Assembly (NCBI GenBank): GCA_965248925.1
Contig: CBDFLE010000006.1
Coordinates: 3,616,001-3,680,000, forward strand
DNA: 64,000 nt
Reading direction: 5' to 3'
From: Candidatus Multivoradales bacterium
GTDB lineage: Bacteria > Acidobacteriota > Thermoanaerobaculia > Multivoradales > J023
In this document: positions 4,901 to 27,029 of the stretch, piece after piece
Position numbering within the stretch: the first letter of the stretch is position 1
How the letters are laid out: every line of letters starts with the position of its first letter
Made by a program: the position numbers and the translations under genes
Notes under the pieces: generated by a model
Told to the model about the DNA's origin: nothing
Databases searched by the model: none
Seen by the model: the letters and a program-made list of their open reading frames with translations, nothing else

Positions 4901-7026
4901 ACCTCGACTACTTCTACGATCCAGCCGGACGCCTGATCCGAGTTGACGAGAGCAACGGTGGCTCGCCGCGCAAGCTCAAGGAGTTCCGCTACGGCCGCAA
5001 GAACGTCGGTGCCGACAAGCGGGCCGGCAAGCTGGTGCAGACCACCCGCCACAATTGGGTGGATCTGGTGAATCCGCTGAACGCCAATCCTGGCTTCCTC
5101 GATGTCCGAATCTCCGAGAGCTTCGTCTACGCGGGTCGTGGCGGCCGGATGTCCGAGCGCCAGACCCGCTATCAGCTCGGCGTCGGTCACTACGCCTTCC
5201 AGAGTGGGTTCTCCTATGACCTGCAAGGCAACCTCGCGACCCTCGACTATCCCGACTGTCTGCACACCAACGACAGCTGCGACCAGGTCAGCCCACCGCG
5301 GCAGGTGAGCTTCGCTTACGACAAAGGCTTCCTCACCGCGGTGCCCGGCTTCGCCTCCAGCCTCAGCTACCAGAGCGGCGGCATGCTGACCCAGATCAGC
5401 CACCAGAGCGGCATCACCGAAACTCGCCAGGTCGATCCCTCCGGCCTCGCCCGGCCCGAGCGCATCTCCACCAACGCCGGCTGGGACACTGGCACCTTCG
5501 ACTACGACGGATCGGGCAACATCCACCGCATCGGCTCGCTGACCTACCGCTATGATCGTTTGCAGCGGCTGGTCAGCGGCGAGGCCAAGGTGGGAAGTAG
5601 CGACCGCCTGCAAACCGCGTCATATGACAACTTCGGCAATCTCACCCAGATGATCACCAACGGCGCCAGCCAGAGCATGAGCCCGAGCAGCAGCACCAAT
5701 CGCCTCGGCTTGAGCGGCACGGTGTACGATGCTGGGGGCAACCTGACCCGCGTGCGTTACAGTAGCTCGGAGATCTACCAGTACACCTACGACGCCGCCA
5801 ACATGATGAAACACCTGCAAAGCAACACAGATCAGGCGAGCGTGTACATCTACAACGCTGATGACGAGCGCATCGTCACCTTCAGCTGCTTCAGCGCCGC
5901 CGGCAGCAGCTGCGTCAGCAGCCCCGCCAGCGAGACCTGGACCTTGCGCGGGCTCGGCAACGAGGTGCTGCGGGTCTTCACCCATCCGCGGGGCGAAAGC
6001 TTCGAGTGGGAGCGGGACTACGTCTACCGGGGTGGACAGCTCCTAGCCTCGATAGACCCGGACTCCAGTGGTGTCGAGGAGACCTTCAGTTTCCATCTTG
6101 ATCATCTCGGCACGCCGCGGCAGGTAACGAAGAGTGGTAGCCAGGTGGCGCTGCACAGCTACTATCCGTTTGGGCAGGAGGCGACCAGCGCTAGCTCAGA
6201 CGAGTTTCAGCTGAAGTTTACCGGGCATGAGCGGGATCAGAACGGGGTGGGGGCGAAGAGCGAGCTGGACTACATGCATGCCAGGCATTGCAGTCCGGTG
6301 GTGGGGAGGTTCTTGGCAGTTGATCCTGTCCGGGGAAAACAGGCGTTGCCTCAGAGCTGGAACCGATTCTCCTATGTCCTGAATAATCCCCTTGCCTATA
6401 CCGATCCAGAAGGAGAGCGGACGGCGGCGCAGCTAGGACAGGCCGGGCAGGACTTGCTCTTCGATCTGACTGAGGAGGCGACGGCCCGCACGGGAGTGGG
6501 TCCGCTTAGTGTTGCTGTCGACACAGCCCTCGGAATGGGTCGAGATCTTGCGAGTGGTGTTCTCGACATCATGAAGGCTGGTGACGGGATTGGCACCGTT
6601 CTTGGGGGCGGAGCGACCGGCGGGGCAGCAGTGCTCGAGATCGGCAAGGATGTTCTCAGAGTCTCTGCGTTGGCTGGGGGCGGAGCGGTTGTTGTTCGCT
6701 CAGCAGCAAAGAAAAGCCTTGTTTCAGGGGGAGAAGCGGCTCTGTCTAAAGCGGCGGGGGCAGCTGACCGCAATGGGCTAACAAAGGCAGGACGGTCTCT
6801 TCAAAAGCATTCGTCCAGACCGGGTAGCGCATTCAATACATCGGCCACACGGGCTAAGGATCTGAACGCTGCGGGCCAGTCCGTTGTCGATGACATTCTT
6901 ACGGCACCTGGGTCGATCCAGAGAACAAACCGCCTCGGGGGTGTCGATGTCGGCCTACCAAACGGCCGAGGTATTCGCTACAACGCGGACGGGTCGTTCC
7001 GGAATTTCTTGGAGCCGAACGGATAG
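1906..7026 (+). CDS. Full-length Rhs/YD-repeat polymorphic toxin RhsA (Sec signal peptide; toxin tip CT1 'GRSLQKH...FLEP')
   Basis: 1706 aa with signal peptide MQQKILIASLLYVALAGPTAA, YD repeats, Rhs core (HLDHLGTPR, KFTGHERD, SWNRFSYVLNNPLAYTDPEG) and a variable C-terminus. Confidence 0.95.
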   Translation: MQQKILIASLLYVALAGPTAAQQPQSHQRGVTADTAFQVGAIDSINLFSGNLSLRLPLGQSYPVGPTLSYGFTLTYNSSGWDFDDQQSCTEGTPPNQMLVSYNLPIQDLDANSGWGWRVNLGQLVRSEGGNPAPPFSGFSYLSPDGGQHAFHDFLHPAQSGTYPPAGTQPNTWFTRDSTYLRMRYYPFASSPCETPSNLLDQDCRTVEFPSGEMHEFHNISHTSFDWRVTKMLDRFGHWVKIAYASGGDWSVTDSANRSHSLDFTAGRLEKVTLAAFNNQSAVYDLVYSGPVDLERQGAQPSCVPEGDTLSGVRLLERLVLPDDSFYQMDYYRTDNPGEKLSGGIKFLRLPTDGAFGWRYQQIDFHAQSPDVPEGREWANIGTGVATKSTFLKDSDYPNSPHGTWIYDYDPQGVLGPGQISCYHTLTLTDPLGNDTKHWFNSAGANRQGFGLPFTRCTPGTNDYYNNSPPYLSQEIYQGSVASGTKRRSIFLEYENDGPSGFYADRNHRMKYRKVIYHDDGDKFREVTHSDFDGLGHFRTTTTGGNFASGNVRASETFYNQNRGSYLIANSDTGAIDPATDFAMFGQTQPWVLETFNSQSVTENGVTETTEYDFALLNGFLRKRRVLAGSSRQSNDLLSIFVQAGTTGFVAAELQYGGDSQAISTASLGNINPAHSGALYRTNHSYQYGVLRNSTVVNPCATSEVLLKLADYDLDKNTGLVKRSRDSAGIKIDFLYDRQGRLTHEFPESEAVRRYTYRLATQSNFNLMPLLTEEQCVTTAACSGSGLLAYRQHTFDGLGRRVKEQVQLPGGVRWYRHMSFNPRAWKTAESVWTLNATSDSRVTKYEQYDNFGRPGRITPPSQPATFLSYEGERTKTRRFKVMLASGVQEDTYNTEISDGQGRLFEVCEGRSAAWNGSCNAGGLLTRYAYDAGSRLTHVCQNRTGSTCGQQRFFNYDGRSFLTSETHPEVGPVGNGATTYSYDARGSVLSKRIGGSTEFDLDYFYDPAGRLIRVDESNGGSPRKLKEFRYGRKNVGADKRAGKLVQTTRHNWVDLVNPLNANPGFLDVRISESFVYAGRGGRMSERQTRYQLGVGHYAFQSGFSYDLQGNLATLDYPDCLHTNDSCDQVSPPRQVSFAYDKGFLTAVPGFASSLSYQSGGMLTQISHQSGITETRQVDPSGLARPERISTNAGWDTGTFDYDGSGNIHRIGSLTYRYDRLQRLVSGEAKVGSSDRLQTASYDNFGNLTQMITNGASQSMSPSSSTNRLGLSGTVYDAGGNLTRVRYSSSEIYQYTYDAANMMKHLQSNTDQASVYIYNADDERIVTFSCFSAAGSSCVSSPASETWTLRGLGNEVLRVFTHPRGESFEWERDYVYRGGQLLASIDPDSSGVEETFSFHLDHLGTPRQVTKSGSQVALHSYYPFGQEATSASSDEFQLKFTGHERDQNGVGAKSELDYMHARHCSPVVGRFLAVDPVRGKQALPQSWNRFSYVLNNPLAYTDPEGERTAAQLGQAGQDLLFDLTEEATARTGVGPLSVAVDTALGMGRDLASGVLDIMKAGDGIGTVLGGGATGGAAVLEIGKDVLRVSALAGGGAVVVRSAAKKSLVSGGEAALSKAAGAADRNGLTKAGRSLQKHSSRPGSAFNTSATRAKDLNAAGQSVVDDILTAPGSIQRTNRLGGVDVGLPNGRGIRYNADGSFRNFLEPNG

Positions 7027-7032
7027 CTGGCC

Positions 7033-7275
7033 ATGGAAAGCGGTGATTTTGAAGTTCAGGTAATGGATGATCCAGACCACGAGGATCTCATTGCCGAGGT
7101 TCTCTACAAGGGGGAGTTTTGTTTCTTGATAAGCCAGGAGACAGGTTTTCGGAATCTGGAGATTCAGGTCCAGAGTCGGCAATCAGGCCAACCATGGCGG
7201 TTCAGTGTGGCTGAGATGGAGGACTCGATCAAACGAGCCAAGAAGCGCCTTTGGGAGCTGCAGCGTGTCGAGTGA
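7033..7275 (+). CDS. Putative immunity protein for CT1
   Basis: Small acidic 80-aa ORF 6 bp after the toxin stop; always travels with CT1 (repeated at 15764). Confidence 0.8.
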   Translation: MESGDFEVQVMDDPDHEDLIAEVLYKGEFCFLISQETGFRNLEIQVQSRQSGQPWRFSVAEMEDSIKRAKKRLWELQRVE

Positions 7276-7348
7276 TTGACACCGTCCTGGCCTAGTACAA
7301 GCCGCTTCGCATCAGCCCGGCTCCGGCCGGGCTTTCGTGCGTCTGGCT

Positions 7349-7711
7349 TCAGGTCGTGGCGTAGGACTGCCGGGTTCGCGCATCGCGGATGAGTCCGTCG
7401 ACCAAGTAGAGGATCCGGTCGCGATCTTCTCCAGAGATCTCTTCGAGGGCCTTCCAGCGGTCGAGCATCTCGCGGTCCTGGAGAGCGTGCGGCAAGGAGT
7501 TCTCGTTGACGAGGTAATCGACGGTGACCCCAAAGATGCTGGCCAGCTTGCGTGCAACCTCGACCGAAGGTGTCATGGCCCCTCGCTCGTAGCGCCCAAT
7601 GATGGTTCCCGAAGTACCGAGCTTCTCGCCAAGTACAGGTTGGGACCACCCCTTGCTCTTCCTCAGCTCGTGAATTCGGTGTCCGAGAGGGCTGTCGGAT
7701 CGCTTTGCCAT
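7349..7711 (-). CDS. Xre-family HTH repressor
   Basis: RIHELRKSKGWSQPVLGEKLGTSGTIIGRYERGAMTPSVEVARKLASIFGVTVDYL; transcribed divergently from the symE-primase operon. Confidence 0.92.
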   Translation of the reverse strand: MAKRSDSPLGHRIHELRKSKGWSQPVLGEKLGTSGTIIGRYERGAMTPSVEVARKLASIFGVTVDYLVNENSLPHALQDREMLDRWKALEEISGEDRDRILYLVDGLIRDARTRQSYATT

Positions 7712-7764
7712 GACCTAATCATCCTGAAATCAACGGTTTTGGCTCCTAACACATCACATTAGCG

Positions 7765-7841
7765 GACGTTTTCGTGCTGGTCAAGACGGCAGGGGCTTGA
7801 CAGTTAGTAGACGAATCGGTCATCATCGGGACGAAAAGGTT
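7765..7841 (+). promoter_or_regulatory. Divergent promoter with three candidate Xre operators
   Basis: TTGACA at 7797-7802 with CATCAT at 7821-7826. Imperfect palindromes GACG-N4-(C/G)GT at 7765-7776, 7810-7821 and 7830-7841. Confidence 0.5.
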
Positions 7842-7868
7842 CTGATGAAGAAAATCGAGGAGAGCAAA

Positions 7869-8081
7869 ATGATCGACCGCACCCTGACCATCTCCAGCCT
7901 CTACCCGTCCTCATCGGCTCCCTCGGGCTGGCGCTCGGTGCGCCAGGCTCGTCGGCAGCGGGCAGTGCCCTTTCTGCGGCTATCGGGCCGGTGGCTGGAA
8001 TCGGCGGGCTTCGAGATCGGCTCGAAGGTGCGGGTAGTGGTCGAGGCAGATCGCCTGGTGGTGGAGCCGGCGGATGTGTGA
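7869..8081 (+). CDS. symE: SymE-family (AbrB-fold) protein
   Basis: VPFLRLSGRWLESAGFEIGSKVRVVVEADRLVV is the SymE signature; GAGGAG RBS before ATG 7869. Confidence 0.85.
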   Translation: MIDRTLTISSLYPSSSAPSGWRSVRQARRQRAVPFLRLSGRWLESAGFEIGSKVRVVVEADRLVVEPADV

Positions 8082-8295
8082 GCAGAGGCTTCGGGTGTCG
8101 AGCTTCTACCGCCCCGGTTGGCCGGCGGCACCTGCTCTGGAGCGGCCGTCGCCGCTCCTGCTGCTGGTGGGCTCGTGGCTGGCTGAGGCGGGGTTTGCTC
8201 CTGGGGATGAGGTGCGGGTGTCGGGGGGGGATGGGCGGTTGCAGGTCGTTCGGCGGGAGCTGGGCGAGAATACGCCGGCTTGGGGAGGGCGGTAG
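8074..8295 (+). CDS. Second SymE-like protein
   Basis: PLLLLVGSWLAEAGFAPGDEVRVSGGDGRLQV is a SymE-like motif; overlaps the previous stop. Confidence 0.65.
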   Translation: MCEQRLRVSSFYRPGWPAAPALERPSPLLLLVGSWLAEAGFAPGDEVRVSGGDGRLQVVRRELGENTPAWGGR

Positions 8296-8297
8296 GG

Positions 8298-11200
8298 GTG
8301 AGCAGGATTCCCGAAGCTGAGGTTGAGCGGCTAAAGCGAGAGGTGTCGGTGGAGCGCCTGGCCTTGGCCCGGGGGGTGAAGCTGAAGCGGCATGGAGCGG
8401 ACCTACTGGGGCTGTGCCCGTTTCACGACGACCGCGAGCCGTCGCTGGTGATCTCGCCGAAGAAGAATCTGTGGCACTGCCTGGGCGCCTGCCAGGCAGG
8501 CGGGTCGGTGATCGATTGGGTGATGCGGGATCGCGGGGTGTCGTTTCGCCACGCGGTGGAGCTGCTGCGCTCGGACCTGCCGGCGGCGGTCGCAGCGGCT
8601 CCGGCCACGGCTCCGGCTCTGCCGTCGCCGGTGGTGGCGGAGGCTGAGGATGCGGAGCTGCTCGGCCAGGTCGTCGGCTACTACCACGAAGCCTTGAAGG
8701 AGAGCCCGGAGGCGCTGGCTTACCTGGAGAGTCGGGGTTTGAAGCATCCGGAGATGATCGAGCATTTCCGGCTTGGCTTTGCCAATCGGACGCTGGGCTA
8801 CCGGCTGCCGCCGAAGCAGGTGAAGGCGGGCAAGGAGATGCGGGGTCGATTGCAGAAGCTCGGTGTGCTGCGCAAGTCGGGGCATGAGCACTTCAATGGC
8901 TCGATCGTCTTTCCGGTCTTCGATTCCACAGGCCAGGTGGCGGAGATGTACGGGCGCAAGATCACGCCGAATCTCCGGAAAGGAACGCCGCTGCATCTCT
9001 ACCTGCCGGGGCTGCACCGGGGCATCTTCAATCCGGAAGCTCTGGTGGCCTCGACCGAGATCATTCTCTGCGAGTCGCTGATCGACGCCTTGACCTTCTG
9101 GTGCGCGGGCTACCGCAACGTCACCAGCGCCTACGGCATCCAGGGCTTCACCGACGAGATGCTAGTGGCCTTTGGCGGTCATGGCACCCGCCGAGTGCTG
9201 ATTGCCTACGACCGGGACGACGCCGGCGAGAAGGCGGCCGGGAAGCTGGCCGAGCAGCTGATGGGTGCCGGGATCGACTGCTACCGAATCCACTTTCCGC
9301 GCGGCATGGACGCCAACGAGTACGCGCTGAAGGTGACCCCCGCCTCGAAGTCGCTGGGGGTGGCCATCCGCCGAGCACAGTGGCTCGGCAAAGGCAAGGC
9401 GCCCGAGGTGAAGCTGGGTTTTGAGCCCGTAGAGGGCGAGGTGGCGCCGCCAGCCGAGCCAACGACATCGCCACACACAGCCGCAGAGGCGGTATTGGTG
9501 CCGCCAGTCCCGGCCGAAGCCTCTCCGCTACCGCCGCCGCCACCGTCGGATGTGCCGGCCGAGGTGCGTGAGCAGGAGGTGGTGCTGTCGCTCGGCGATC
9601 GCCGCTATCGGATTCGCGGCCTGCCGAAGAATCTGGCCTACGACGTGCTCAAGGTCAACGTCCTGGCGTCGCAGGGTGACAGCTTCCACGTCGATACCTT
9701 CGATCTCTACTCGGCACGGCCGCGCTCGGTGTTTCAGCGAGCGGCGGCCGCTGAGCTGGGGGTCGAGGAGCAGGTGGTCAAGAAGGATCTGGGCAAGGTG
9801 CTCTTGAAGCTCGAGGAGCTGCAAGACGAGCAGATCCGCTCGGCGCTTGAGCCGCAGTCGGTGGCCATCGCGCTGTCGGAGGAAGAGAAGGAAGCGGCGC
9901 TTGAGCTGCTGCGCTCGCCGGAGCTGCTCCAGCGCATCCTTGAGGACTTCGAGCGCTGCGGGGTGGTGGGCGAGGAGGTCAACAAGCTGATGGGCTACCT
10001 GGCGGCTACCTCGCGCTTTCTGGAGCGCCCTTTGGCGGTGGTGGTGCAATCGAGCTCAGCGGCCGGCAAGTCGGCGCTGATGGAGGCGGTGCTGGCGCTG
10101 ATGCCGGGTGAGGAGCAAGTGAAGTACTCGGCGATGACCGGGCAATCGCTGTTCTACATGGGCGAGACGAACCTGCAGCACAAGATCTTGGCGATCGTCG
10201 AGGAGGAAGGCGCCGAGCGAGCGAGCTATGCGCTCAAGCTCCTGCAGTCGGAAGGTGAGCTGACGATTGCCTCGACTGGCAAGGACGCTTCAACGGGCAA
10301 GCTGGTGACGCACGAGTACCACGTCGAAGGGCCGGTGATGATCTTCTTGACGACCACGGCGATCGACATCGATGAGGAGCTGCTCAACCGCTGCCTGGTG
10401 CTGTCGGTAGACGAGGCGCGGGAGCAGACGCGGGCGATTCACCGGCTGCAGCGCGAGCGGCGGACCCTCGAAGGGCTGCTATCACGCACCAGGCGCGACG
10501 GGGTGACGGCATTACACCAGAACGCACAGCGGCTGCTGCGGCCGCTGGCCGTGGTCAATCCATTCGCTCCGGAGCTGACCTTTCTCGATACCCAGATCAG
10601 GACGCGGCGGGATCACGAGAAGTACCTGACGCTGATCGATGTGATTGCTCTCCTGCACCAGCACCAGCGGGAGGTGAAGCGGGCGGTGGTCGACGGGCGA
10701 GAGGTCGAGTACGTGGAGGTGGTGGCCACGGACATCGAGACCGCCAACCGCCTGGCGCACGAGGTGCTGGGGCGCTCGCTCGATGAGCTACCACCGCAGA
10801 CGCGGCGCTTGCTGGGGCTGATCGACGCGATGGTCAGCGAAGCCTGCGAAGCGCTGGCGATGGATCGCCCGGACTACCGCTTCAGCCGGCGAGCGGTGCG
10901 CGAGCACACCGGCTGGGGCAACACGCAGCTGAAGCTGCACCTGCGCCGTCTCGAGGAGCTGGAGTATCTGCTGGTGCATCAGGGTGGGCGGGGGCAGAGC
11001 TTCGTCTACGAGCTGGTCTACGTGGCCGGCGACGAGTCCGAGCGGCCGCGACTGCCGGGGCTGATCGAGGTCGAAGCACTCCGGTACGACGGAAAGAAGT
11101 CGGGCCAGGCTGGCGAGAAGTCGGGGCCAAGTCGGCCCCAAGTCGGGGGGGTATCGGGGGGTGGTCGGGGTGCAGTTTCCCCAGCAGAATCAACAGCTTC

Positions 11201-11318
11201 GGCCGGAAATCGTGGGGTTTCGTCGAAAAACGCACATAGGGGGGTGCAAGAAAACGGCTCGTCATATCGTAAATCAACACGTCGTACCCACGACTCAGAG
11301 ACGGCCGAGAGTGCGTGA
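8298..11318 (+). CDS. DNA primase/helicase-like protein: CHC2 zinc finger + Toprim + P-loop ATPase
   Basis: CPFHDDREPSL..WHCLGAC zinc finger; CESLIDALT and AYDRDDAG Toprim motifs; Walker A-like SSSAAGKS; likely GTG start at 8298. Confidence 0.9.
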   Translation: MSRIPEAEVERLKREVSVERLALARGVKLKRHGADLLGLCPFHDDREPSLVISPKKNLWHCLGACQAGGSVIDWVMRDRGVSFRHAVELLRSDLPAAVAAAPATAPALPSPVVAEAEDAELLGQVVGYYHEALKESPEALAYLESRGLKHPEMIEHFRLGFANRTLGYRLPPKQVKAGKEMRGRLQKLGVLRKSGHEHFNGSIVFPVFDSTGQVAEMYGRKITPNLRKGTPLHLYLPGLHRGIFNPEALVASTEIILCESLIDALTFWCAGYRNVTSAYGIQGFTDEMLVAFGGHGTRRVLIAYDRDDAGEKAAGKLAEQLMGAGIDCYRIHFPRGMDANEYALKVTPASKSLGVAIRRAQWLGKGKAPEVKLGFEPVEGEVAPPAEPTTSPHTAAEAVLVPPVPAEASPLPPPPPSDVPAEVREQEVVLSLGDRRYRIRGLPKNLAYDVLKVNVLASQGDSFHVDTFDLYSARPRSVFQRAAAAELGVEEQVVKKDLGKVLLKLEELQDEQIRSALEPQSVAIALSEEEKEAALELLRSPELLQRILEDFERCGVVGEEVNKLMGYLAATSRFLERPLAVVVQSSSAAGKSALMEAVLALMPGEEQVKYSAMTGQSLFYMGETNLQHKILAIVEEEGAERASYALKLLQSEGELTIASTGKDASTGKLVTHEYHVEGPVMIFLTTTAIDIDEELLNRCLVLSVDEAREQTRAIHRLQRERRTLEGLLSRTRRDGVTALHQNAQRLLRPLAVVNPFAPELTFLDTQIRTRRDHEKYLTLIDVIALLHQHQREVKRAVVDGREVEYVEVVATDIETANRLAHEVLGRSLDELPPQTRRLLGLIDAMVSEACEALAMDRPDYRFSRRAVREHTGWGNTQLKLHLRRLEELEYLLVHQGGRGQSFVYELVYVAGDESERPRLPGLIEVEALRYDGKKSGQAGEKSGPSRPQVGGVSGGGRGAVSPAESTASAGNRGVSSKNAHRGVQENGSSYRKSTRRTHDSETAESA
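11097..11169 (+). repeat. Helically phased AAGTCGG(G)-type repeats (iteron-like) in the 3' end of the primase gene
   Basis: TCGG cores at 11100, 11121, 11132, 11143, 11154 and 11165 (spacing 21, 11, 11, 11, 11). Confidence 0.7.
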
Positions 11319-12391
11319 TGGCGCGCCGTGGTCAGCGCAAGATCCGCCTCTTGCCGGGTGATCCTACTGATCCCAGAGGTTTCATGGTGATGGTTAGCAA
11401 GTACCTGGAGTGGATGGCGGTCAAGAGCTACTCACCGCACACCATCGAGGCCCGCCACCTCTACCTCAGCCACCTCATCATCTGGTGTGAGCAGCGCGGG
11501 GTAACGCGGCCGGCGGAGGTGACCAAGCCGATCCTGGAGCGCTACGCGCAGTGGCTCTACCACTACCGCAAGCCCGCGAACGGACGACCCTTGAGCTTTC
11601 GCACGCAGCTCACGCGGCTAGTGCCGGTGCGCGCCTTCTTCAAGTGGGCGGCACGGGCCAATTACTTGCTCTACAACCCGGCCTCGGAGCTAGAGCTGCC
11701 GAAGCCAGAGCAGCGGCTGCCGGCAGCGGTGCTCACTGCCGCAGAAGCCGACCAGGTGCTCAACCAGCCGGACACGATGGACCCGCTTGGCTTGCGGGAC
11801 AGAGCGATCCTCGAAGTCTTCTACTCGACCGGCATACGCCGGGCCGAGATGATCGGGCTGGGGCGCTACGATCTCGACGTCAACCGGGAAACGCTGATGG
11901 TGCGTCAGGGCAAGGGACGCAAGGACCGGATGATCCCCCTCGGCGAGCGGGCGCTGGCCTGGGTCGACCGCTACGTCACCGAGGTACGGCCCCATCTGGT
12001 GGTCGAGCCGGACGATGGAGCGCTCTTTCTCACCAACGATGGAATGTCCTTCACGACGTCATGGATGACCCCGCTGGTGCGCGGTTACGTGGTGGCCGCC
12101 GATATCGGCAAACCGGGCGCCTGCCACCTCTTTCGCCACACCATGGCGACGCTGATGCTCGAAGGTGGGGCGGATATCCGCTTTGTCCAGCAGATGCTCG
12201 GCCACGCCAGGCTAGAGACGACGCAGATCTACACTCAGGTCTCGATCCGCAAGCTGAGAGAGATTCACGCCACAACGCATCCGGGGGCGAAGCTGGGGAG
12301 CCGGGTGGTGCAGTCGGCGGAAGAAGACGGTAGCAATGAAGTGACCGCCGAGGACTTACTCGATGCGGTGGAGGAAGAAGCGGAGGACTGA
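11318..12391 (+). CDS. XerC/XerD-like tyrosine recombinase
   Basis: RDRAILEVFYSTGIRRAE, GKGRKDR, HLFRHTMAT and LGHARLETTQIY give the full R-K-H-R-H-Y catalytic set; TGATG coupling to the primase. Confidence 0.95.
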   Translation: MARRGQRKIRLLPGDPTDPRGFMVMVSKYLEWMAVKSYSPHTIEARHLYLSHLIIWCEQRGVTRPAEVTKPILERYAQWLYHYRKPANGRPLSFRTQLTRLVPVRAFFKWAARANYLLYNPASELELPKPEQRLPAAVLTAAEADQVLNQPDTMDPLGLRDRAILEVFYSTGIRRAEMIGLGRYDLDVNRETLMVRQGKGRKDRMIPLGERALAWVDRYVTEVRPHLVVEPDDGALFLTNDGMSFTTSWMTPLVRGYVVAADIGKPGACHLFRHTMATLMLEGGADIRFVQQMLGHARLETTQIYTQVSIRKLREIHATTHPGAKLGSRVVQSAEEDGSNEVTAEDLLDAVEEEAED

Positions 12392-12804
12392 CCCTGCCCC
12401 CCACCCGAAGCGGTCCGGGTCTCCGTGCTCGGGCTGCGGCCGGCCTGGCGGCCGTCCTCCGCTCCTGCGCGCGCAGCCCTCGGCTGTGTTTGTTTTCTCA
12501 CCCCTGCCCGCCCCGGTCCGAGCGTCCGTGATCCACCGCCCGTACCCTCCGGTCACCGGCCCAGAGCGGGGCTTCAAGTAGTCCAAGAAAAGAGTCTTCG
12601 AAAGCTCACCCCAAGCTCCGCCGAGGCGTGTGTCCCTCCGGTCGCTACGCTCCCTGCGGGCACGGGCCAGCCGCTGCGGCAAGCCGGGCGCCCGCCGGCC
12701 CCCACCCCTGGCCCTCCGTCGGTCACCCGGCTTGCAATCTCCGCTGTCCGATAGTGCGCCACTATCCGACCTGGCCCTCACAAGCCCCGGCTCCGGGCCT
12801 GCGG

Positions 12805-12834
12805 CCTTTCCATAACGCGTGCATTATGGAAACT
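12805..12834. other. dif/cer-like recombination site
   Basis: CCTTTCCATAA-CGCGTGCA-TTATGGAAACT: 9-bp perfect inverted arms, 8-bp spacer, and the CATAA/TTATG cores of Xer sites; about 415 bp downstream of the recombinase. Confidence 0.7.
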
Positions 12835-13596
12835 TGGGGTGAGCACGCTGGTGGCCTGCGGTGGTCAGCGGCTTCGGAACCACGCCCCGCTCTGGGCCTC
12901 CTTGCCGAGATCCACCAGCCAGCACTCAGGCGGCTCGGGCCGGACACCCGTCCGCCCCCTCAAGGGGGCTCCCCATCCTCCTCCCAAGACCCACCCGGCG
13001 CCAGGTCCTCCGTACCCTGCGCGCGGCGCCCTGCGGTCGCCGTGCTCAGCTCCGGCCCCACCGCCACCCACCCGAGAAGAAGACCCCCGCCCACCCCGTC
13101 CACCAGCTGCGCTCATGGCCGGCCGCCCCCACGCACCCAACGTGCAGCTTGGCTTGCCGGCTACGCCGCCGGCACCAAACTGCCGGGAAGACCCGCACTC
13201 GCTGCGACGATCAGCCCGACGAAAACGACCTAAGAAAACACCCACCGCCCGAAGAACACAGCCTAAGAAAACCGCATCCCGCCCCACCGCACCAACCACC
13301 CTCCCTCCTTTAGCCGCCGTCTTCGAGCACCAACAGCGGCGTAGAATGGCCCAGCATGAGGCAGGCAGCTAAAGGAAGAAGCATCTGGCGATCGCGCTCG
13401 GCTTGGTCGTCGTGCTTCTGGCCGTGACGATACCGGCGGCAGTGATCGCATCGGCGATGCACCGAGCTACGCCAAAACTCGCCTCTGGGTCTTCGAGAGC
13501 CAAGACCCCGCAGGCATCAGGTACGAGCGAGCTTAAGTGCAAACAGCTCTATGGGATACGTCGCGTCTTGCCCGAAACTTGCGTCGGGGTGTCCAC

Positions 13597-15757
13597 TTTG
13601 AGCAAACGCATCGGTGGCTCCACCGAATTCGACCTCGACTACTTCTACGATCCAGCCGGACGCCTGATCCGAGTTGACGAGAGCAACGGTGGCTCGCCGC
13701 GCAAGCTCAAGGAGTTCCGCTACGGCCGCAAGAACGTCGGTGCCGACAAGCGGGCCGGCAAGCTGGTGCAGACCACCCGCCACAATTGGGTGGATCTGGT
13801 GAATCCGCTGAACGCCAATCCTGGCTTCCTCGATGTCCGAATCTCCGAGAGCTTCGTCTACGCGGGTCGTGGCGGCCGGATGTCCGAGCGCCAGACCCGC
13901 TATCAGCTCGGCGTCGGTCACTACGCCTTCCAGAGTGGGTTCTCCTATGACCTGCAAGGCAACCTCGCGACCCTCGACTATCCCGACTGTCTGCACACCA
14001 ACGACAGCTGCGACCAGGTCAGCCCACCGCGGCAGGTGAGCTTCGCTTACGACAAAGGCTTCCTCACCGCGGTGCCCGGCTTCGCCTCCAGCCTCAGCTA
14101 CCAGAGCGGCGGCATGCTGACCCAGATCAGCCACCAGAGCGGCATCACCGAAACTCGCCAGGTCGATCCCTCCGGCCTCGCCCGGCCCGAGCGCATCTCC
14201 ACCAACGCCGGCTGGGACACTGGCACCTTCGACTACGATGGATCGGGCAACATCCACCGAATCGGCTCGCTGCAATACCGCTATGATCGTCTGCAGCGGC
14301 TGGTCAGCGGCGAAGCCAAGGTGGGCAGCAGCGACCGCCTACAAACCGCGTCGTATGACAACTTCGGCAACCTCACGCAGATGATCACCAACGGCGCAAG
14401 CCAGAGCATGAGCCCGAGCAGCGCCACCAACCGCCTCGGTCTCAGCGGCACCACCTATGACGCTGGCGGCAACCTGACCCGCGTGCGTTACAGTAGCTCG
14501 GAGATCTACGAGTACACGTACGACGCCGCCAACATGATGAAACACCTGCAATCCAACACCGACCAGGCGAGCGTGTACATCTACAACGCTGATGACGAGC
14601 GCATCGTCACCTTCAGCTGCTTCAGCGCCGCCGGCAGCAGCTGCGTCAGTAGCCCGGCCAGCGAGACCTGGACCCTGCGCGGGCTGGGCAACGAGGTGCT
14701 GCGGGTCTTTAGCCATCCACGTGGGGAGAGCTTCGAGTGGGAGCGCGACTACGTCTATCGGGGTGGACAGCTCCTAACCTCGGTAGACCCGGACGCCAGT
14801 GGTGTCGAGGAGACCTTCAGTTTCCATCTTGATCATCTCGGCACGCCGCGGCAGGTAACGAAGAGTGGTAGCCAGGTGGCGCTGCACAGCTACTATCCGT
14901 TTGGGCAGGAGGCGACCAGCGCTAGCTCAGACGAGTTTCAGCTGAAGTTTACCGGGCATGAGCGGGATCAGAACGGGGTGGGGGCGAAGAGCGAGCTGGA
15001 CTACATGCATGCCAGGCATTGCAGTCCGGTGGTGGGGAGGTTCTTGGCAGTTGATCCTGTCCGGGGAAAACAGGCGTTGCCTCAGAGCTGGAACCGATTC
15101 TCCTATGTCCTGAATAATCCCCTTGCCTATACCGATCCAGAAGGAGAGCGGACGGCGGCGCAGCTAGGACAGGCCGGGCAGGACTTGCTCTTCGATCTGA
15201 CTGAGGAGGCGACGGCCCGCACGGGAGTGGGTCCGCTTAGTGTTGCTGTCGACACAGCCCTCGGAATGGGTCGAGATCTTGCGAGTGGTGTTCTCGACAT
15301 CATGAAGGCTGGTGACGGGATTGGCACCGTTCTTGGGGGCGGAGCGACCGGCGGGGCAGCAGTGCTCGAGATCGGCAAGGATGTTCTCAGGGTCTCTGCG
15401 TTGGCTGGGGGCGGAGCGGTTGTTGTTCGCTCAGCAGCAAAGAAAAGCCTTGTTTCAGGGGGAGAAGCGGCTCTGTCTAAAGCGGCGGGGGCAGCTGACC
15501 GCAATGGGCTAACAAAGGCAGGACGGTCTCTTCAAAAGCATTCGTCCAGACCGGGTAGCGCATTCAATACATCGGCCACACGGGCTAAGGATCTGAACGC
15601 TGCGGGCCAGTCCGTTGTCGATGACATTCTTACGGCACCTGGGTCGATCCAGAGAACAAACCGCCTCGGGGGTGTCGATGTCGGCCTACCAAACGGCCGA
15701 GGTATTCGCTACAACGCGGACGGGTCGTTCCGGAATTTCTTGGAGCCGAACGGATAG
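13597..15757 (+). pseudogene. Orphan Rhs 3' cassette carrying toxin tip CT1
   Basis: Rhs homology starts abruptly at 13597 (LSKRIGGSTEF...). The frame is open upstream to 13373 through a non-Rhs leader. The CT is the same as in RhsA. Confidence 0.88.
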
Positions 15758-15763
15758 CTGGCC

Positions 15764-16006
15764 ATGGAAAGCGGTGATTTTGAAGTTCAGGTAATGGATG
15801 ATCCAGACCACGAGGATCTCATTGCCGAGGTTCTCTACAAGGGGGAGTTTTGTTTCTTGATAAGCCAGGAGACAGGTTTTCGGAATCTGGAGATTCAGGT
15901 CCAGAGTCGGCAATCAGGCCAACCATGGCGGTTCAGTGTGGCTGAGATGGAGGACTCGATCAAACGAGCCAAGAAGCGCCTTTGGGAGCTGCAGCGTGTC
16001 GAGTGA
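15764..16006 (+). CDS. CT1 immunity protein, copy 2
   Basis: Identical translation to 7033-7275. Confidence 0.8.
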   Translation: MESGDFEVQVMDDPDHEDLIAEVLYKGEFCFLISQETGFRNLEIQVQSRQSGQPWRFSVAEMEDSIKRAKKRLWELQRVE

Positions 16007-16079
16007 TTGACACCGTCCTGGCCTAGTACAAGCCGCTTCGCATCAGCCCGGCTCCGGCCGGGCTTTCGTGCGTCTGGCT

Positions 16080-16442
16080 TCAGGTCGTGGCGTAGGACTG
16101 CCGGGTTCGCGCATCGCGGATGAGTCCGTCGACCAAGTAGAGGATCCGGTCGCGATCTTCTCCAGAGATCTCTTCGAGGGCCTTCCAGCGGTCGAGCATC
16201 TCGCGGTCCTGGAGAGCGTGCGGCAAGGAGTTCTCGTTGACGAGGTAATCGACGGTGACCCCAAAGATGCTGGCCAGCTTGCGTGCAACCTCGACCGAAG
16301 GTGTCATGGCCCCTCGCTCGTAGCGCCCAATGATGGTTCCCGAAGTACCGAGCTTCTCGCCAAGTACAGGTTGGGACCACCCCTTGCTCTTCCTCAGCTC
16401 GTGAATTCGGTGTCCGAGAGGGCTGTCGGATCGCTTTGCCAT
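16080..16442 (-). CDS. Xre-family repressor, copy 2
   Basis: Identical translation to 7349-7711. Confidence 0.92.
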   Translation of the reverse strand: MAKRSDSPLGHRIHELRKSKGWSQPVLGEKLGTSGTIIGRYERGAMTPSVEVARKLASIFGVTVDYLVNENSLPHALQDREMLDRWKALEEISGEDRDRILYLVDGLIRDARTRQSYATT

Positions 16443-16599
16443 GACCTAATCATCCTGAAATCAACGGTTTTGGCTCCTAACACATCACATTAGCGGACGT
16501 TTTCGTGCTGGTCAAGACGGCAGGGGCTTGACAGTTAGTAGACGAATCGGTCATCATCGGGACGAAAAGGTTCTGATGAAGAAAATCGAGGAGAGCAAA

Positions 16600-16687
16600 A
16601 TGATCGACCGCACCCTGACCATCTCCAGCCTCTACCCGTCCTCATCGGCTCCCTCGGGCTGGCGCTCGGTGCGCCAGGCTCGTCGGC
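16600..16687 (+). pseudogene. 5' fragment of symE, truncated at the RAYT flank
   Basis: Matches 7869-7956, then switches to CAGAGAAATAGGTGCC. Confidence 0.8.
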
Positions 16688-16712
16688 CAGAGAAATAGGT
16701 GCCAGGCACATT
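16686..16712. repeat. REP-like palindrome at the 3' end of the RAYT gene
   Basis: GTGCC-A-GGCAC (16699-16709); GCCAGAGAAATAGGTGCC recurs at 26919-26936. Confidence 0.55.
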
Positions 16713-17652
16713 ATGAAGAGTCAGAAGGGGTGTTGGTGTCAACGAATTTTGGTCTTGGCGGGAAGGAGTTTTCAGGAAATCCGCTAGGTGCTCCACGGCT
16801 TCGAAGTTTCTCCGCGGCCGTACGGTATGCAGTGAGGAATTCGCCCAAGGCCAAGCGCATCGCGTGCCGGACTTTCTTCCGATAGACGTGAAAGAAGGGG
16901 GGTGGGTTTGTCGGTTGCTGGCCGGGGCGTCGATGTGTCTGCTGCTGGCCGACGAGGAATGCGCCGAGGGGCTCGGTTCCTCGGTCTTGATGGAGTCTTG
17001 CAGTATCTCTCTCGATCTTCTCGATGAGTTCCAAGATGTGTTGCTGCCGAGCTTCTGGCGCAAGATGCTTCCAGCATGGCAGGGTGTCGAGCTTTAACTC
17101 GACGTCGGTTTCGAAGTCGGACTCCTCGGTGTCGGCCTCGCGCTGGCTCGCCGCCCATTGCCGAGTGCGGTCGATCCAGATTCCCCTCAGCGGATAGCCC
17201 GTCAGGAGCGCTCCTGCGCAGTGGGCTCCCGGCCACTCGAGGGGTGACATCACGAGACTTTTTTTGCACCCTTGAGAGAGGATGTATTCGAGGCGCTTGA
17301 TCTGAGCTTCCTCTTCGTCGCTGACCGGAATCATGGTGTAGCGCCGGTCGAACATCGAGCCGGGCCAGTCGTGGAGACGACCTATTTCTTTGGCTATGTT
17401 GGTCTTGAGGTGTCCCATAAATCGCGCAATCTGTTCGACGGTGGCCGGTGAAGCGAGTAGGTGGAAGTGATTTGAGAGGACGGCGATCGCCTGGACGGCG
17501 AGCTCGGTTTCTTGCTGGGCTTTGGCAAGAATTCCGATTAGAAGCTGATTGAGACGCCGGCTCGGTCGTAGGAGGTAGCGCCCTTGCAGAGTCCGCTGGG
17601 TGATCTCGACCAAGCAGCCGGGACGCGGCAAGTAGCGTGGTAAACGTGGCAT
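16711..17652 (-). CDS. RAYT-like HUH (Y1) transposase
   Basis: MPRLPRY..VEITQRT..AVLSNHFHLL (HUH)..FDRRY..LEYILSQ..PLEWPG; 313 aa from ATG 17652, which overlaps the comM stop (TGATG). Confidence 0.85.
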   Translation of the reverse strand: MPRLPRYLPRPGCLVEITQRTLQGRYLLRPSRRLNQLLIGILAKAQQETELAVQAIAVLSNHFHLLASPATVEQIARFMGHLKTNIAKEIGRLHDWPGSMFDRRYTMIPVSDEEEAQIKRLEYILSQGCKKSLVMSPLEWPGAHCAGALLTGYPLRGIWIDRTRQWAASQREADTEESDFETDVELKLDTLPCWKHLAPEARQQHILELIEKIERDTARLHQDRGTEPLGAFLVGQQQTHRRPGQQPTNPPPFFHVYRKKVRHAMRLALGEFLTAYRTAAEKLRSRGAPSGFPENSFPPRPKFVDTNTPSDSS

Positions 17653-18136
17653 CAGCCTCGCTCCGATCGCTGGTCCAGGCTGCGGTATTGAATGGCCTCG
17701 GCGGCATGCGCTGCCCGAATCTCCGCCGAACTGTCGAGGTCGGCGATGGTGCGGGATAGCTTGAGGATGCGGCTGAGTGCCCGTGCCGACAGCTTGAGCT
17801 TGTCGAAGGCGGTGTCGACCAAGCGCTGGGCATCGGGCGCTAGCACGCAATGCTGCTCGATGCCGTCGCTCCCCAGGGAGGCATTGACCGGCAGGTCCGT
17901 CTGGGAGCCGAATCTACTGCGCTGGATCTCTCTCGCCTGGCGCACTCTCCACGCTACTTCCCGAGTCCCTTCGGTGGCTTCGCTGCGCAACTCGGCAAGG
18001 CTCACCGCGGGTACCTCGACATGCATGTCGATGCGGTCGAGCAGCGGCCCTGAGACCCGACTGCGATAGCGCTCGATCATCTGTGGCGAGCATTTGCAGT
18101 GATGCCGATCGTCCCCCAAATGCCCGCACTTGCATG
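17652..18136 (-). pseudogene. comM: 3' half of comM (copy 2, native C-terminus ...SLDQRSERG)
   Basis: Identical to 148-612 at offset 17,524 bp; same break point. Confidence 0.88.
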
Positions 18137-18643
18137 ATTGCGGCCCCCTTTTGCCATGTCCAGTTGAGAGGACGTATCCCCAAGATTGCGGGGTATCCGC
18201 GAGAACTTGTTACGATTGGTAACCACATCAAGAGATGTCGGCTTGATCGTGGTCAGTTGCAGAAAGACGTTGCCCGAACGCTCGGCGTCTGTCTGGGTTC
18301 GATAGTAAATTGGGAACATGACAGGGGCTACCCGGAAGTCCGGTTTTGGCCGGCACTCACGGACTGGCTTGGCTACGATCCAAACCCTGAGCCCGAGAAT
18401 GTGGCTGAGCTGCTGATGGCTTTGCGGCGCAGGCTCGGATTTTCGCAGCGCTCTCTCGCCACGGTCATCGACGTGGCACCAGAGACGATTTCGGGATGGG
18501 AGCAGCAGGCGCACCGGCCGTCAGGAAAAGCACGCCGACGACTGAGCGGCTGGATTGAGTCGCTGGAGGTCGGAGACGATCTCGCGAGGTGTGCTGCTCG
18601 GGTGGTGGTGCTGTTGCGGGGGCGGAGTGCCGTGGTGGAGTGA
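18134..18643 (+). CDS. Tandem HTH protein, copy 2
   Basis: Identical to 610-1119. Confidence 0.75.
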   Translation: MIAAPFCHVQLRGRIPKIAGYPRELVTIGNHIKRCRLDRGQLQKDVARTLGVCLGSIVNWEHDRGYPEVRFWPALTDWLGYDPNPEPENVAELLMALRRRLGFSQRSLATVIDVAPETISGWEQQAHRPSGKARRRLSGWIESLEVGDDLARCAARVVVLLRGRSAVVE

Positions 18644-18927
18644 GCGCTTATTGGTCTTTTGCGAGTTGCGCGAGCAGTGCCCGCCGAATGACCTCGGGAT
18701 TGGATGTGCGGCTATCGAATGCACGCCGCGATTTTGACCATTGATATATGTAGACAATATCAGAATATCGAAAACAAGGAGTTCCCTCGCGTGCAATCTC
18801 TGTCATTCAGTGGATCGAGGGGAAACGGTTCATTTCCAGCCTGCCAAAATGAACCGTTTGGTCTCTAACATCTTTTCCCATAGCTTGTTTGACGAAACAA
18901 AGTCGAGCGGGAACCTGGTGGGCCTAG

Positions 18928-20424
18928 CAGCCCGTGGTGAAAGTCCCGATTACGGCCGTCTTGGCGATCTTCCCTGGTAGAATCTTTCCACCCGAGGGAG
19001 GTAGCGACCATGGCGATGGGCAGGCGAAGCAAACGAAGACAGCGGCAGCTCTGGGTGGAAACCCAGGCGCTGGCCAAGTCCCCAGGACATCCTTTCTACG
19101 AGCGTCTGTCCAAGATTCTCGACAAGCACGGTTTCGATCGCTTTATCGAGGAGCAGTGCGCGAGGTTTTACGCTACGAGGATGGGACGGCCTTCGCTGGC
19201 GCCCGCGGTGTATTTTCGGTTGCTGTTGATCGGCTTCTTCGAGGGTATCGACTCTGAGCGAGGTATCGCATGGCGGCTTGCGGATTCGATGACTCTGCGC
19301 GACTTTCTGGGCTTCGAACTCTCGGACCAGACCCCGGACCATTCGACGCTCTCTCGGACCCGTCGCCTGATCGATCTCGAGACCCATGAGGCGGTGTTTG
19401 CTTGGGCTTTGCAAGTACTGGCGAAGGCTGGCTTGCTCCGGGGAAAGACGCTGGGCATCGATGCGACGACCCTCGAGGCGAACGCGGCGATGCGCAGCAT
19501 CGTGCGTCGAGACTCGGGCGAGAGCTACGAAGAGTTTCTCACGCGCCTGGCCGAGGCTTCGGGTGTGGAGACCCCGACGCGAGCGGATCTGGCGCGTTTT
19601 GACCGCCAAAGGAAGAACAAAAAGACGTCGAACGGCGACTGGAAGAACCCCCACGATCCCGACGCCAAAGTCACGCGAATGAAGGATGGGCGGACGCATC
19701 TGGCGCACAAAGCCGAGCATGCGGTGGATATGGAGACGGGTGCGGTTGTGGCGGTGACGGTGCAACCTGCAGACCGAGGGGACACGTCGAGCCTAGAGCG
19801 GACGTTGGATGAAGTCGCTGCGGTGCTGGAAGATGTCGTTGAGGATTCGGAGGCTGGCGATCACTTGAGCGAGAAAGTCCGTTCAGAGCTGGTGGCTGAC
19901 AAGGGCTATCACAGTAACGCGGTCATGAAGGCACAGCGTCAAGGGAAGATTCGAACCTATATTTCGGAACCGGATCGAGGCCGACGCAACTGGTGCGGCA
20001 AAGAGGCGGAGAAGCAAGCGGTGTATGCCAACCGTCGACGGATCAAGGGTCGTCGAGGCCGCGAGCTGTCGCGGCGTCGAGGAGAGAAAGTAGAACGCAC
20101 CTTTGCCCATTGCTACGAGACTGGCGGTATGAGAAGGACCCACCTTCGAGGTCACGACAACATCCGCAAAAGGTTGCTGATTCACATCGCGGGATTCAAT
20201 CTTGGGCTGCTGCTTCGTCAAATGTATGGAGCCGGCACTCCACGGGCCCTTCAGGGCTTTCTTTCGGCTCTCGAACAGGGCTTTCGCGCCGTATATAGCT
20301 TGCTGAGCTGGCTTCTGCCGCACGAGAGCGGATATTGGCCACTAAGATCTTCGATCAGACCACCTGCGCCGGCTGGCCTCAATTTAGGCCACATTTTGTA
20401 GAAACGGACTTCTGCCACGGGCTG
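18928..20424 (+). mobile_element. Complete 1,497-bp IS (IS1182/IS5-like) with CTAG target duplication
   Basis: IRs CAGCCCGTGGTGAAAGTCC / rc CAGCCCGTGGCAGAAGTCC (16/19). CTAG at 18924-18927 and 20425-20428; the empty site is visible at 1400-1403. Confidence 0.93.
19010..20401 (+). CDS. DDE transposase
   Basis: GRPSLAP..SERGIAW..PDHSTLSR N-terminus; IDATTLEANA, VADKGYHS and KVERTFAH catalytic motifs. Confidence 0.93.
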   Translation: MAMGRRSKRRQRQLWVETQALAKSPGHPFYERLSKILDKHGFDRFIEEQCARFYATRMGRPSLAPAVYFRLLLIGFFEGIDSERGIAWRLADSMTLRDFLGFELSDQTPDHSTLSRTRRLIDLETHEAVFAWALQVLAKAGLLRGKTLGIDATTLEANAAMRSIVRRDSGESYEEFLTRLAEASGVETPTRADLARFDRQRKNKKTSNGDWKNPHDPDAKVTRMKDGRTHLAHKAEHAVDMETGAVVAVTVQPADRGDTSSLERTLDEVAAVLEDVVEDSEAGDHLSEKVRSELVADKGYHSNAVMKAQRQGKIRTYISEPDRGRRNWCGKEAEKQAVYANRRRIKGRRGRELSRRRGEKVERTFAHCYETGGMRRTHLRGHDNIRKRLLIHIAGFNLGLLLRQMYGAGTPRALQGFLSALEQGFRAVYSLLSWLLPHESGYWPLRSSIRPPAPAGLNLGHIL

Positions 20425-26938: not shown

Positions 26939-27029
26939 GATCAGGTGCCACCCTTCTCGTATCCCCTTGTTATCAGTAGCTTACGCCAAGAAGCCAAAGA
27001 AGCCACCGAAGGTTGATCCGCGTCGACGA
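26939..27029 (+). repeat. Conserved cassette leader, copy 1 (pairs with 29566-29819)
   Basis: GATCAGGTGCCACCCTTCTCGTATCCCCTTGTTATCAGTAGCTTA is identical in both copies; both continue into Rhs at TGATCCGCGTCGACGA. Confidence 0.85.

Follow-up and report, generated by a model that had tools for sequence, protein, structure and literature searches.

A stretch of 64,000 nucleotides from a Candidatus Multivoradales bacterium (the window, C6:3616001-3680000 of a genome of about 8 Mb in 6 contigs) contains a small mobile element in which a DnaG-type primase gene adjoins the gene for a Xer-like tyrosine integrase (Int) at an Rhs locus. In the non-coding region after int lies a palindrome, H-B, which forms a stem-loop within a non-coding module that is folded and conserved, hereafter the block, and that this widespread element carries. 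We tentatively interpret the block as the cis-acting recombination site of the element's own integrase, used for resolution or for excision of units, an interpretation that we offer as possible rather than probable. The block and its surroundings are arranged as follows, with a strand given where one applies:

12471..12499 (+), a terminator-like hairpin with a T-run, after int and upstream of the block, kept in most genome copies
12628..12840, a discrete module of about 212 bp with all the inverted repeats, missing from 2 of 14 element copies
12634..12660, the motif CCCTCCGGTCGCTACGCTCCCTGCGGG, weakly pairing and recurring in two relatives (L048 and L046)
12712..12854 (+), the conserved block, which scores 114.8 bits in the window against a covariance model (R1) and comprises a stem-loop H-A, a short middle helix and H-B
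12746..12770, H-A, a stem-loop whose inner stem covaries in relatives (98.3% of alignment cells pair)
12807..12832, H-B, the last stem-loop of the block, identical at 26 of 26 positions in 12 of 12 copies and with homologous hairpins in relatives
12840..12932, a hypervariable patch directly 3' of the block, with 3-4 alleles and informative sites from +33 to +125 counted from the first palindrome base

The palindrome, TTTCCATAA-CGCGTGCA-TTATGGAAA, is not a product of chance: allowing up to 3 mismatches, its pattern matches the window once and 0 of 100 shuffles. Its arms extend to 12 nt with 92% complementarity, and their inner portions, CCATAA and TTATGG with 8 nt between them, carry the CATAA/TTATG motif, as anticipated by the original prediction of a dif/cer-like site with Xer-type inner cores. 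That prediction counted a single copy, which is correct within the window but not beyond it, since the genome-wide search that it proposed, now run, returns 12 exact copies including the asymmetric 8-nt spacer (and 0 matches to a reversed control pattern). The copies are distributed over three contigs, every one of them inside a copy of the primase-integrase module and internal to it, never at a boundary, so that the internal position claimed for the first copy extends to all. H-B is perfectly conserved among these 12 sites even though the window copy is only about 86% identical overall to the others. A dispersed repeat of the repetitive extragenic palindrome (REP) or miniature inverted-repeat transposable element (MITE) type does not fit the confinement of 12/12 pattern matches and 12/12 model matches to element copies, and 12 copies on three contigs, all in mobile modules, are not what a single chromosomal dif-type terminus site would present. 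A search of the whole genome for a host dif with [CA]ATAA-N4..9-TTAT[GT] gave, beyond the 12 element copies, 4 stray matches, none convincing.

H-B does not stand by itself. A second inverted repeat that had been suggested as an accessory site, H-A (GTCCGATAGTG-CGC-CACTATCCGAC), is present where it was predicted, although 10 of the 11 positions of its arms pair (91%) rather than all 11. A third, a CGCTACGCT-containing stem at about 12634-12660, fared less well as a structure, folding it as DNA giving only a 3-bp stem, CGC/GCG, although the motif does recur beside the block in the two relatives named above. The proposal that both belong with the palindrome holds, and all are parts of one conserved block; a further 20-nt inverted repeat (12679-12698 / 12716-12735, 85%) had been missed. 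Two element copies with intact primase and Int frames lack 212-230 bp equivalent to 12628-12840 and 12622-12851, and the segment deleted from them is the one that holds every inverted repeat of the original prediction. H-A and H-B are both part of a unit of roughly 140-220 nt that is conserved in relatives from several phyla; in the six relatives compared, nothing else in the 1.2-kb non-coding region is as well conserved. The conserved sequence flanks H-B on its 5' side only, making H-B the 3' edge of the block; 7 nt after it begins the patch of about 90 bp that varies among copies otherwise 95-98% identical.

The model R1 was built from ten sequences and searched against 95 sources, where 38 matches reached E<=1; of 41 genomes searched with it, 8 have a match. 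In the present genome it recovers exactly the 12 known copies and nothing else among 150 scored candidates. Among the relatives G001-G040 the block occurs in seven (G009, G011, G013, G016, G033, G023 and, weakly, G037), and all five that encode an element-type Int (G009, G011, G013, G016 and G033) carry it. Downstream of Int in relatives stand two hairpins 41-100 nt apart, the first, H-A, of the form GATAnnn-loop-nnnTATC and the second, H-B, of the form (TT)TACATAA-loop-TTATGTA(AA). The inner three pairs of H-A vary by lineage and stay complementary (GTG/CAC, ATG/CAT, AGG/CCT, AGA/TCT, ACG/CGT, AAG/CTT), and where GATA becomes GAGA or GGGA its partner changes to match (G011, G033, G052). H-B in G016 is ACGTAA/TTACGT in one type of unit (type b) and ACATAA/TTATGT in the other (type a). 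In the alignment as a whole, which has 33 distinct rows and was fitted to the model, so that its figures lean toward structure, 90.1% of cells pair (75.4% in shuffles, 36-50% in slid controls), 22 of 28 pairs have changed on each side, and 0 of 500 shuffles reach the observed values. It contains five covarying helices with variable-length hairpins inserted at fixed points. The H-B helix pairs in 92.6% of cells of this model-fitted alignment; H-A is confirmed by a reverse-strand alignment, in which H-B is misaligned. The closing helix of R1 is tentative, while H-A and H-B are robust, and their compensatory changes and variable short loops mark both as stem-loops rather than rigid sites for dimer binding.

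The original prediction of a dif/cer-like site is not supported as far as a duplex of fixed dif-like geometry is concerned. The distance between the H-B hexamers is 4 nt in G009 and G016 type b, 5 nt at seven sites, 6 nt in G013 and L078, 7 nt in L113, and 8 nt in L112 and the window. Such spacing, together with the covariation of the stems, does not support a rigid duplex core.

A set of covarying helices might also belong to a transcript, and we considered whether the block is a structured non-coding RNA, or part of one, acting either in copy control or immunity or as a regulator of the orphan toxin cassette downstream. The five helices and the variable-length hairpins at fixed points are in keeping with such an RNA, as is the usual position of the block ahead of, and in the same orientation as, the promoter-like region and leader of the orphan. 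On the modelled strand G.U pairs exceed A.C pairs by 43 to 23, yet within H-A and H-B the order is reversed on the plus strand, so that the strand signal contradicts itself. A scan of 7000-14000 against Rfam 15 at E<=1 returned only an irrelevant microRNA model inside int (26.7 bits, gathering score 78) and nothing relevant for the block, no sigma-70-like promoter for the block was found, and the sole terminator-like site lies upstream of it. Several stems are perfect palindromes with 2-nt centres, unusual for RNA hairpins, and in G047 the block is inverted relative to Int and cargo and thus antisense to both neighbours. We regard an RNA as improbable. Folding of the block as DNA gives z = -2.7 against shuffles for the minus strand and z = -1.1 for the plus strand; between these scores and the pair counts no consistent strand emerges.

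We return to the recombination site as the reading placed first, under which a Xer-like Int would bind the stems that bear ATAA and TTAT. Crossover would occur at H-B, on the 3' edge of the block, and the 100-200 bp or so on its 5' side, H-A and its neighbours, would have an architectural or accessory role in DNA that is possibly extruded or present as a single strand. With two blocks in direct repeat, recombination would resolve multimers of a circular form replicated by the primase, and the same reaction could remove individual units from a tandem array or insert them into one. Entry into an Rhs gene would be a separate matter: the crossover would fall not at the block but in the stretch of Rhs core-end homology present in each unit, so that a circular unit crossing over with a resident Rhs would hand it the incoming tip and leave the old tip behind the module. 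Units of types a and b in G016 are evenly diverged, with about 88-90% identity on both sides of the block, and their similarity ends at the boundary between core-end and tip, which fits entry by core-end crossover.

Several observations favour a site for Int. H-B occurs within element copies and nowhere else in the genome, and in G001-G040 the block is present in all five relatives that have an element-type integrase. The neighbouring recombinase is of Xer type, as had been proposed: on NF002331, an NCBIfam model for a XerC subfamily with a cut-off of 371, Int scores 432 bits; it also matches the XerA model, and scores about 225 bits against the XerC and XerD equivalog models, below their cut-offs, while models of integron integrases match weakly. 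Its alignment has many invariant columns, including R, K, H and Y residues. The Xer-like protein is accompanied by the CATAA/TTATG inner motif in the H-B arms, and the block is the best-conserved part of a non-coding region that follows the terminator-like site of int. Signs of rearrangement gather just 3' of H-B: both deletions described above end there, at 12840 and 12851, the hypervariable patch starts 7 nt beyond it, and one pair of copies shares its left type and differs in its right type, placing a breakpoint between -88 and +33. All 12 genome copies have the same 8-nt spacer, which differs between genomes; partner sites of tyrosine recombinases are expected to need matching overlap regions. 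At G009 and G016 type b the half-sites show the 6-4-6 spacing described for dif (Kono 2011, PMC3025954).

Other results weigh against a recombination site. We saw no recombination product: contigs from the sample over 7000-14000 gave no informative joint (they come from four runs of one sample and break at repeats, several of them ending at 12831, and the two joints present are single contigs of other copies). The distance between half-sites, 4 to 8 nt with both stems covarying, is unlike the rigid duplex core of dif-type sites, and stems of 7-12 bp could each hold only one recombinase-binding box. The even divergence of the G016 units shows no break at H-B, and it is the Rhs core-end that bounds the modules, together with, in this genome, a place close to the start of the primase. 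The single recombinant pair could reflect ordinary homologous exchange within the 121-bp interval. Identity at 26/26 positions against a background of about 86% has a chance of roughly 0.02 per site, which is not decisive, and gene conversion could also produce it. Finally, no crossover at the block is needed to account for any array end or single copy. Multimer resolution, which the original prediction preferred to integration, is a live reading, and a function in origin or priming fits nearly as well.

Under that alternative the block is a replication origin or single-strand initiation signal, its hairpins recognised by the DnaG-type primase-helicase to replicate a circular form. The element does encode such a primase, which ends in a P-loop tail, the analysis identified no competing candidate for an origin, and the block gathers a covarying set of stem-loops into about 140 nt that are AT-rich in a setting of 64-68% G+C, within an apparently untranscribed gap after the int terminator-like site. 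Its orientation is free, being inverted in G047, and some relatives have convergent inverted pairs, as expected for priming of both strands; AT-rich tracts flank the Myxococcota versions, and folding as DNA favours the minus strand over its shuffles (z as above). Against an origin, the block persists beside Int in the degenerate, primase-less element of G045 (L122), where H-B is cut after its loop, and it occurs in units that consist of the block only, with no primase nearby. In G033 it appears twice ahead of Rhs-type ORFs (open reading frames) with no Int or primase in between, and such block-only units ahead of Rhs fragments fit a cassette-linked site better than an origin. The two copies that retain intact primase and Int genes without the block, the lack of identified iterons next to it, and the resemblance of its arms to Xer half-sites, which an origin does not require, point the same way. 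We consider an origin somewhat unlikely, though it is the main rival of the recombination site. We find it unlikely, to a further degree, that the block is a folded-DNA recombination site, functionally attC-like, for the Xer-like integrase, with the units (toxin tip, immunity gene, repressor, primase, integrase and block) as self-replicating cassettes that load toxin tips onto host Rhs genes by way of the core-end. Recombination of one block with another could then take such a cassette out of an array or add it to one.

The module that carries the block covers about 5.7 kb (window ~7349-13596), and the locus reads:

1906-7026 (+), full-length Rhs, 1706 amino acids (aa), which heads the locus
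7033-7275 (+), a small ORF downstream of Rhs, putatively for immunity
7349..7711 (-), an XRE-type helix-turn-helix (HTH) repressor, divergent from the primase operon, whose allele differs between units
7872-8081 and 8074-8295 (+), two small AbrB/SymE-like ORFs with a weak SymE match (a SymE_toxin match in the L005 homologue)
8280..11318 (+), the DnaG-type primase, 1012 aa, with CHC2 zinc finger, DnaG core, Toprim and a long C-terminal part with a GKS P-loop motif
11315..12391 (+), Int, the Xer-like tyrosine recombinase, 358 aa, whose start overlaps the primase stop (PF00589, 2.8e-36)
13301..13596 (+), a conserved pre-orphan region with an inverted repeat (13301-13318/13364-13381) and an ATG at 13353; the module has its fixed right end at 13596
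13403-15757, an orphan Rhs, 5'-truncated, with the same toxin tip, after the non-coding region
13597..16687 (+), a second copy of 4866-7956, 98.4% identical, with 5'-truncated Rhs core, toxin tip, putative immunity gene, HTH gene and the first 85 nt of the AbrB ORF

Because the repeat of 4866-7956 at 13597-16687 ends 85 nt into the AbrB ORF, the locus is a tandem array with a truncated second unit. About 1.2 kb without a convincing gene separates Int from the orphan Rhs fragment, and a tRNA scan found 0 in the window. PHROGs primase and integrase families match the element proteins, and the HTH repressor scores 77.8 bits against an RstR-family model (cut-off 80). The orphan of most copies begins with a conserved ATG and a signal-peptide-like leader (MRQAAKGRSTWTMALGLVVALLAV...) in frame with the last 70 or so residues of the Rhs core; the window copy has lost 1 nt, which leaves the leader ATG at 13353 out of frame (cf. 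L005 9207-10283).

An ORF of 379 aa with a Y1 (IS200-like) transposase domain (16711-17850, -) abuts the truncated second unit, and a DDE transposase insertion sequence (IS) at 19010-20401 (+) stands ahead of the next Rhs copy. That second full-length copy (20931-25967) is 99.2% identical over 4.9 kb and has a different tip. The 1.26 kb in front of Rhs, which include an HTH gene, are present twice (145-1403 = 17669-18927, 99.9%), a further orphan fragment, about 91% identical, lies at 27014-28408 without a primase-integrase module, and the window starts with three to four 23-nt tandem repeats (54-139, TGGTCAC TTTCGATCGGAATCGG-like).

By BLAST and tblastn maps the genome contains 14 copies of the module, seven in an array on C5, three in an array on C6 and four single, including that of the window. 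With the window Rhs as query, a full-length Rhs gene is found at the head of the locus for 13 of the 14, and each of these 13 is then followed by a piece of Rhs core end (the 5'-truncated orphan); no heading full-length Rhs gene was found with that query for the copy at C4:253757-258312. Copies joined to three different Rhs positions all have their right module end at one and the same nucleotide (...GTCC[A/C]C TT), with only 1-3 T's in common between end and target (window 13560-13600, L005 9410-9460, L007 10065-10115). To judge from these junctions the right end looks like a defined, site-specific end on the element's side, and homology alone does not explain a common right end at different Rhs positions.

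The same junctions bear on whether the block is an attL or attR half, or the attP by which the element entered the locus, a possibility suggested by the integrase gene that adjoins it and one to which we attach almost no credence. The block is never split at an element end, being complete and internal in 12/12 copies, no partial block occurs at single copies or array ends, and the element meets the chromosome inside Rhs sequence (13596/13597) and inside the 3091-bp repeat. The half-site of an attL/attR pair, which the original prediction had named as the outcome that would overturn it, is therefore not what is found.

Variation among the units speaks in turn to the idea that the block is an operator for the HTH repressor or the AbrB-like proteins, as a palindrome in an element with a divergent repressor and AbrB-like genes might be. 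Units differ in their HTH alleles (120, 125 and 162 aa, the latter two both in L005) and in their AbrB1 types (44% as against 87-91% identity to that of the window). H-B is nonetheless 26/26 identical across them, and this invariance argues against an allele-specific operator. The block also lies >4.5 kb from the divergent promoter region, and the spacing of its half-sites is variable with covarying stems. An operator is very improbable.

Insertions mark several of the C5 units. One has an IS21-type pair (IstB and a Mu-like transposase) within its non-coding region (L006 13893-16225), and in the last unit the primase is split at residue 740 by an insertion of about 2.9 kb (C5:977235-980139). 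Two adjacent units have an rve-type IS right after the palindrome; we rejected targeting of the palindrome by the IS, as duplication of the unit is the simpler explanation.

Ten of 60 related genomes encode integrases that adjoin a primase gene and are 46-78% identical to Int, in many cases in tandem and close to Rhs pieces. When one genome per species was scanned, 560 Int-encoding stretches were obtained, from which 79 loci of many phyla were kept; 73 of the 79 have a primase match, many are tandem, and in 3 of the 6 without a primase Int lies within about 250 bp of a contig start. Near Int at L124 and L091, which lack the primase, no H-A/H-B-like hairpins were found. A cargo scan covered 142 of the 151 candidate ORFs downstream of Int, from 55 loci. 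RHS-repeat, toxin or immunity families follow Int in 15 of the 55 loci and relaxase or type IV secretion families in 4. At four distant loci (L066, L088, L116 and L124) Int (with primase in three) is followed by relaxase or type IV secretion genes, and the module there seems to be part of larger conjugative elements.

Convergent inverted pairs of blocks, 0.7-1.3 kb apart and adjoining an HTH gene, occur in G011, G033 and G052. The interiors of such pairs are partly palindromic (L044 8379-9580, L052 13028-14145, L046 872-1889, L048 16224-17828), and that of L048 has ORF-like stretches on the minus strand. Two candidates for attachment sites among the relatives were considered and rejected: the cut H-B of G045 (L122) belongs to a degenerate element, and no matching right half was found upstream, and the flanking direct repeats of six Actinobacteria-type loci are the previous array unit and repeated core-end pieces rather than short att cores. 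A tRNA scan of the loci of 30 relatives gave two calls only, one inside apparent coding sequence; the 'tRNA-Tyr' call at L124 falls in apparent coding sequence.

Orphan toxin tips behind Rhs and related genes are usually explained by homologous recombination with incoming DNA whose vehicle is unknown. In this genome each displaced tip has beside it a complete repressor-primase-integrase module with a conserved hairpin block. Should the block be the integrase's site, both a vehicle and a mechanism for the exchange of toxin tips would be at hand, along with a further Xer-related enzyme that acts on structured DNA; if it is an origin, it would define a compact type of replicon. Were the folded-DNA site to prove true, elements of this family would shuttle polymorphic-toxin tips across phyla.

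Of the known systems, XerCD/dif and cer/psi, single-recombinase Xer systems included, resemble the element in having a Xer-family recombinase next to the site, CATAA/TTATG inner arms, and an internal site present once per replicon-like unit. The cer and psi sites have some 150-200 bp of accessory sequence on one side of the core; in the element conserved sequence lies only 5' of H-B, the putative core, with variability from 7 nt on its 3' side. It differs from these systems in its covarying hairpin-like stems, its symmetric arms and its 12 genome copies, all in mobile elements. In dif, hexamers at positions 7-12 and 17-22 of 28 bp form the palindrome, a fixed 4 nt apart (Kono et al. 2011, PMC3025954); the corresponding distance in the element is 8 nt for the window site and 4-8 nt among relatives.

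Like integron attC and the folded single-stranded attP of CTX phage, the block keeps its structure over its sequence and has variable palindrome centres, and like attC it occurs once per cassette-like unit in tandem arrays, with a recombinase of the Xer-related group. An attC site has a long stem with two recombinase boxes (R/L) and extrahelical bases, and its recombination is strand-specific; the element's stems are 7-12 bp with no two-box stem, the pair counts show no consistent strand preference, and the unit has an integrase and a primase of its own. With hairpin signals for primases (G4-type; ssiA/ssiB of RSF1010) the block shares several hairpins in about 140 nt beside a DnaG-type primase gene and, in some relatives, inverted pairs; it differs in occurring also where no primase gene is near.

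The gene content resembles that of P4-like and phage-inducible chromosomal island (PICI) elements, in which a divergent repressor, a primase-helicase and a tyrosine integrase lie within 5-8 kb, but no tRNA target was found in the window or at the loci of 30 relatives, no packaging or capsid-redirecting genes were seen, and the cargo is toxin tips. The rAID systems of Bacteroidales, the nearest system in the literature consulted, have one recombinase heading an array of short immunity genes (PMC12247911). By that description (PMC12247911) they share with the element a tyrosine recombinase with orphan toxin/immunity arrays and conserved intergenic motifs, and they differ in that here a recombinase and a primase occur in every unit and the arrays stand on an Rhs gene. 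A paper on Bryopsidales chloroplasts (PMC4487195) proved unrelated, its rhs, primase and integrase being separate genes in different species, and full-text literature searches yielded no description pairing orphan Rhs tips with a primase-integrase module.

In layout the element also resembles Rhs displacement: as there, a full-length Rhs is followed by 5'-truncated core-end fragments, each with a toxin tip and a small ORF. Displacement of Rhs C-termini with arrays of orphan toxins is a known pattern, reportedly described by Jackson et al. in 2009. The present arrays differ from it in that successive tips are separated by a 5.7-kb repressor-primase-integrase module with its own hairpin block and a leader with its own start.

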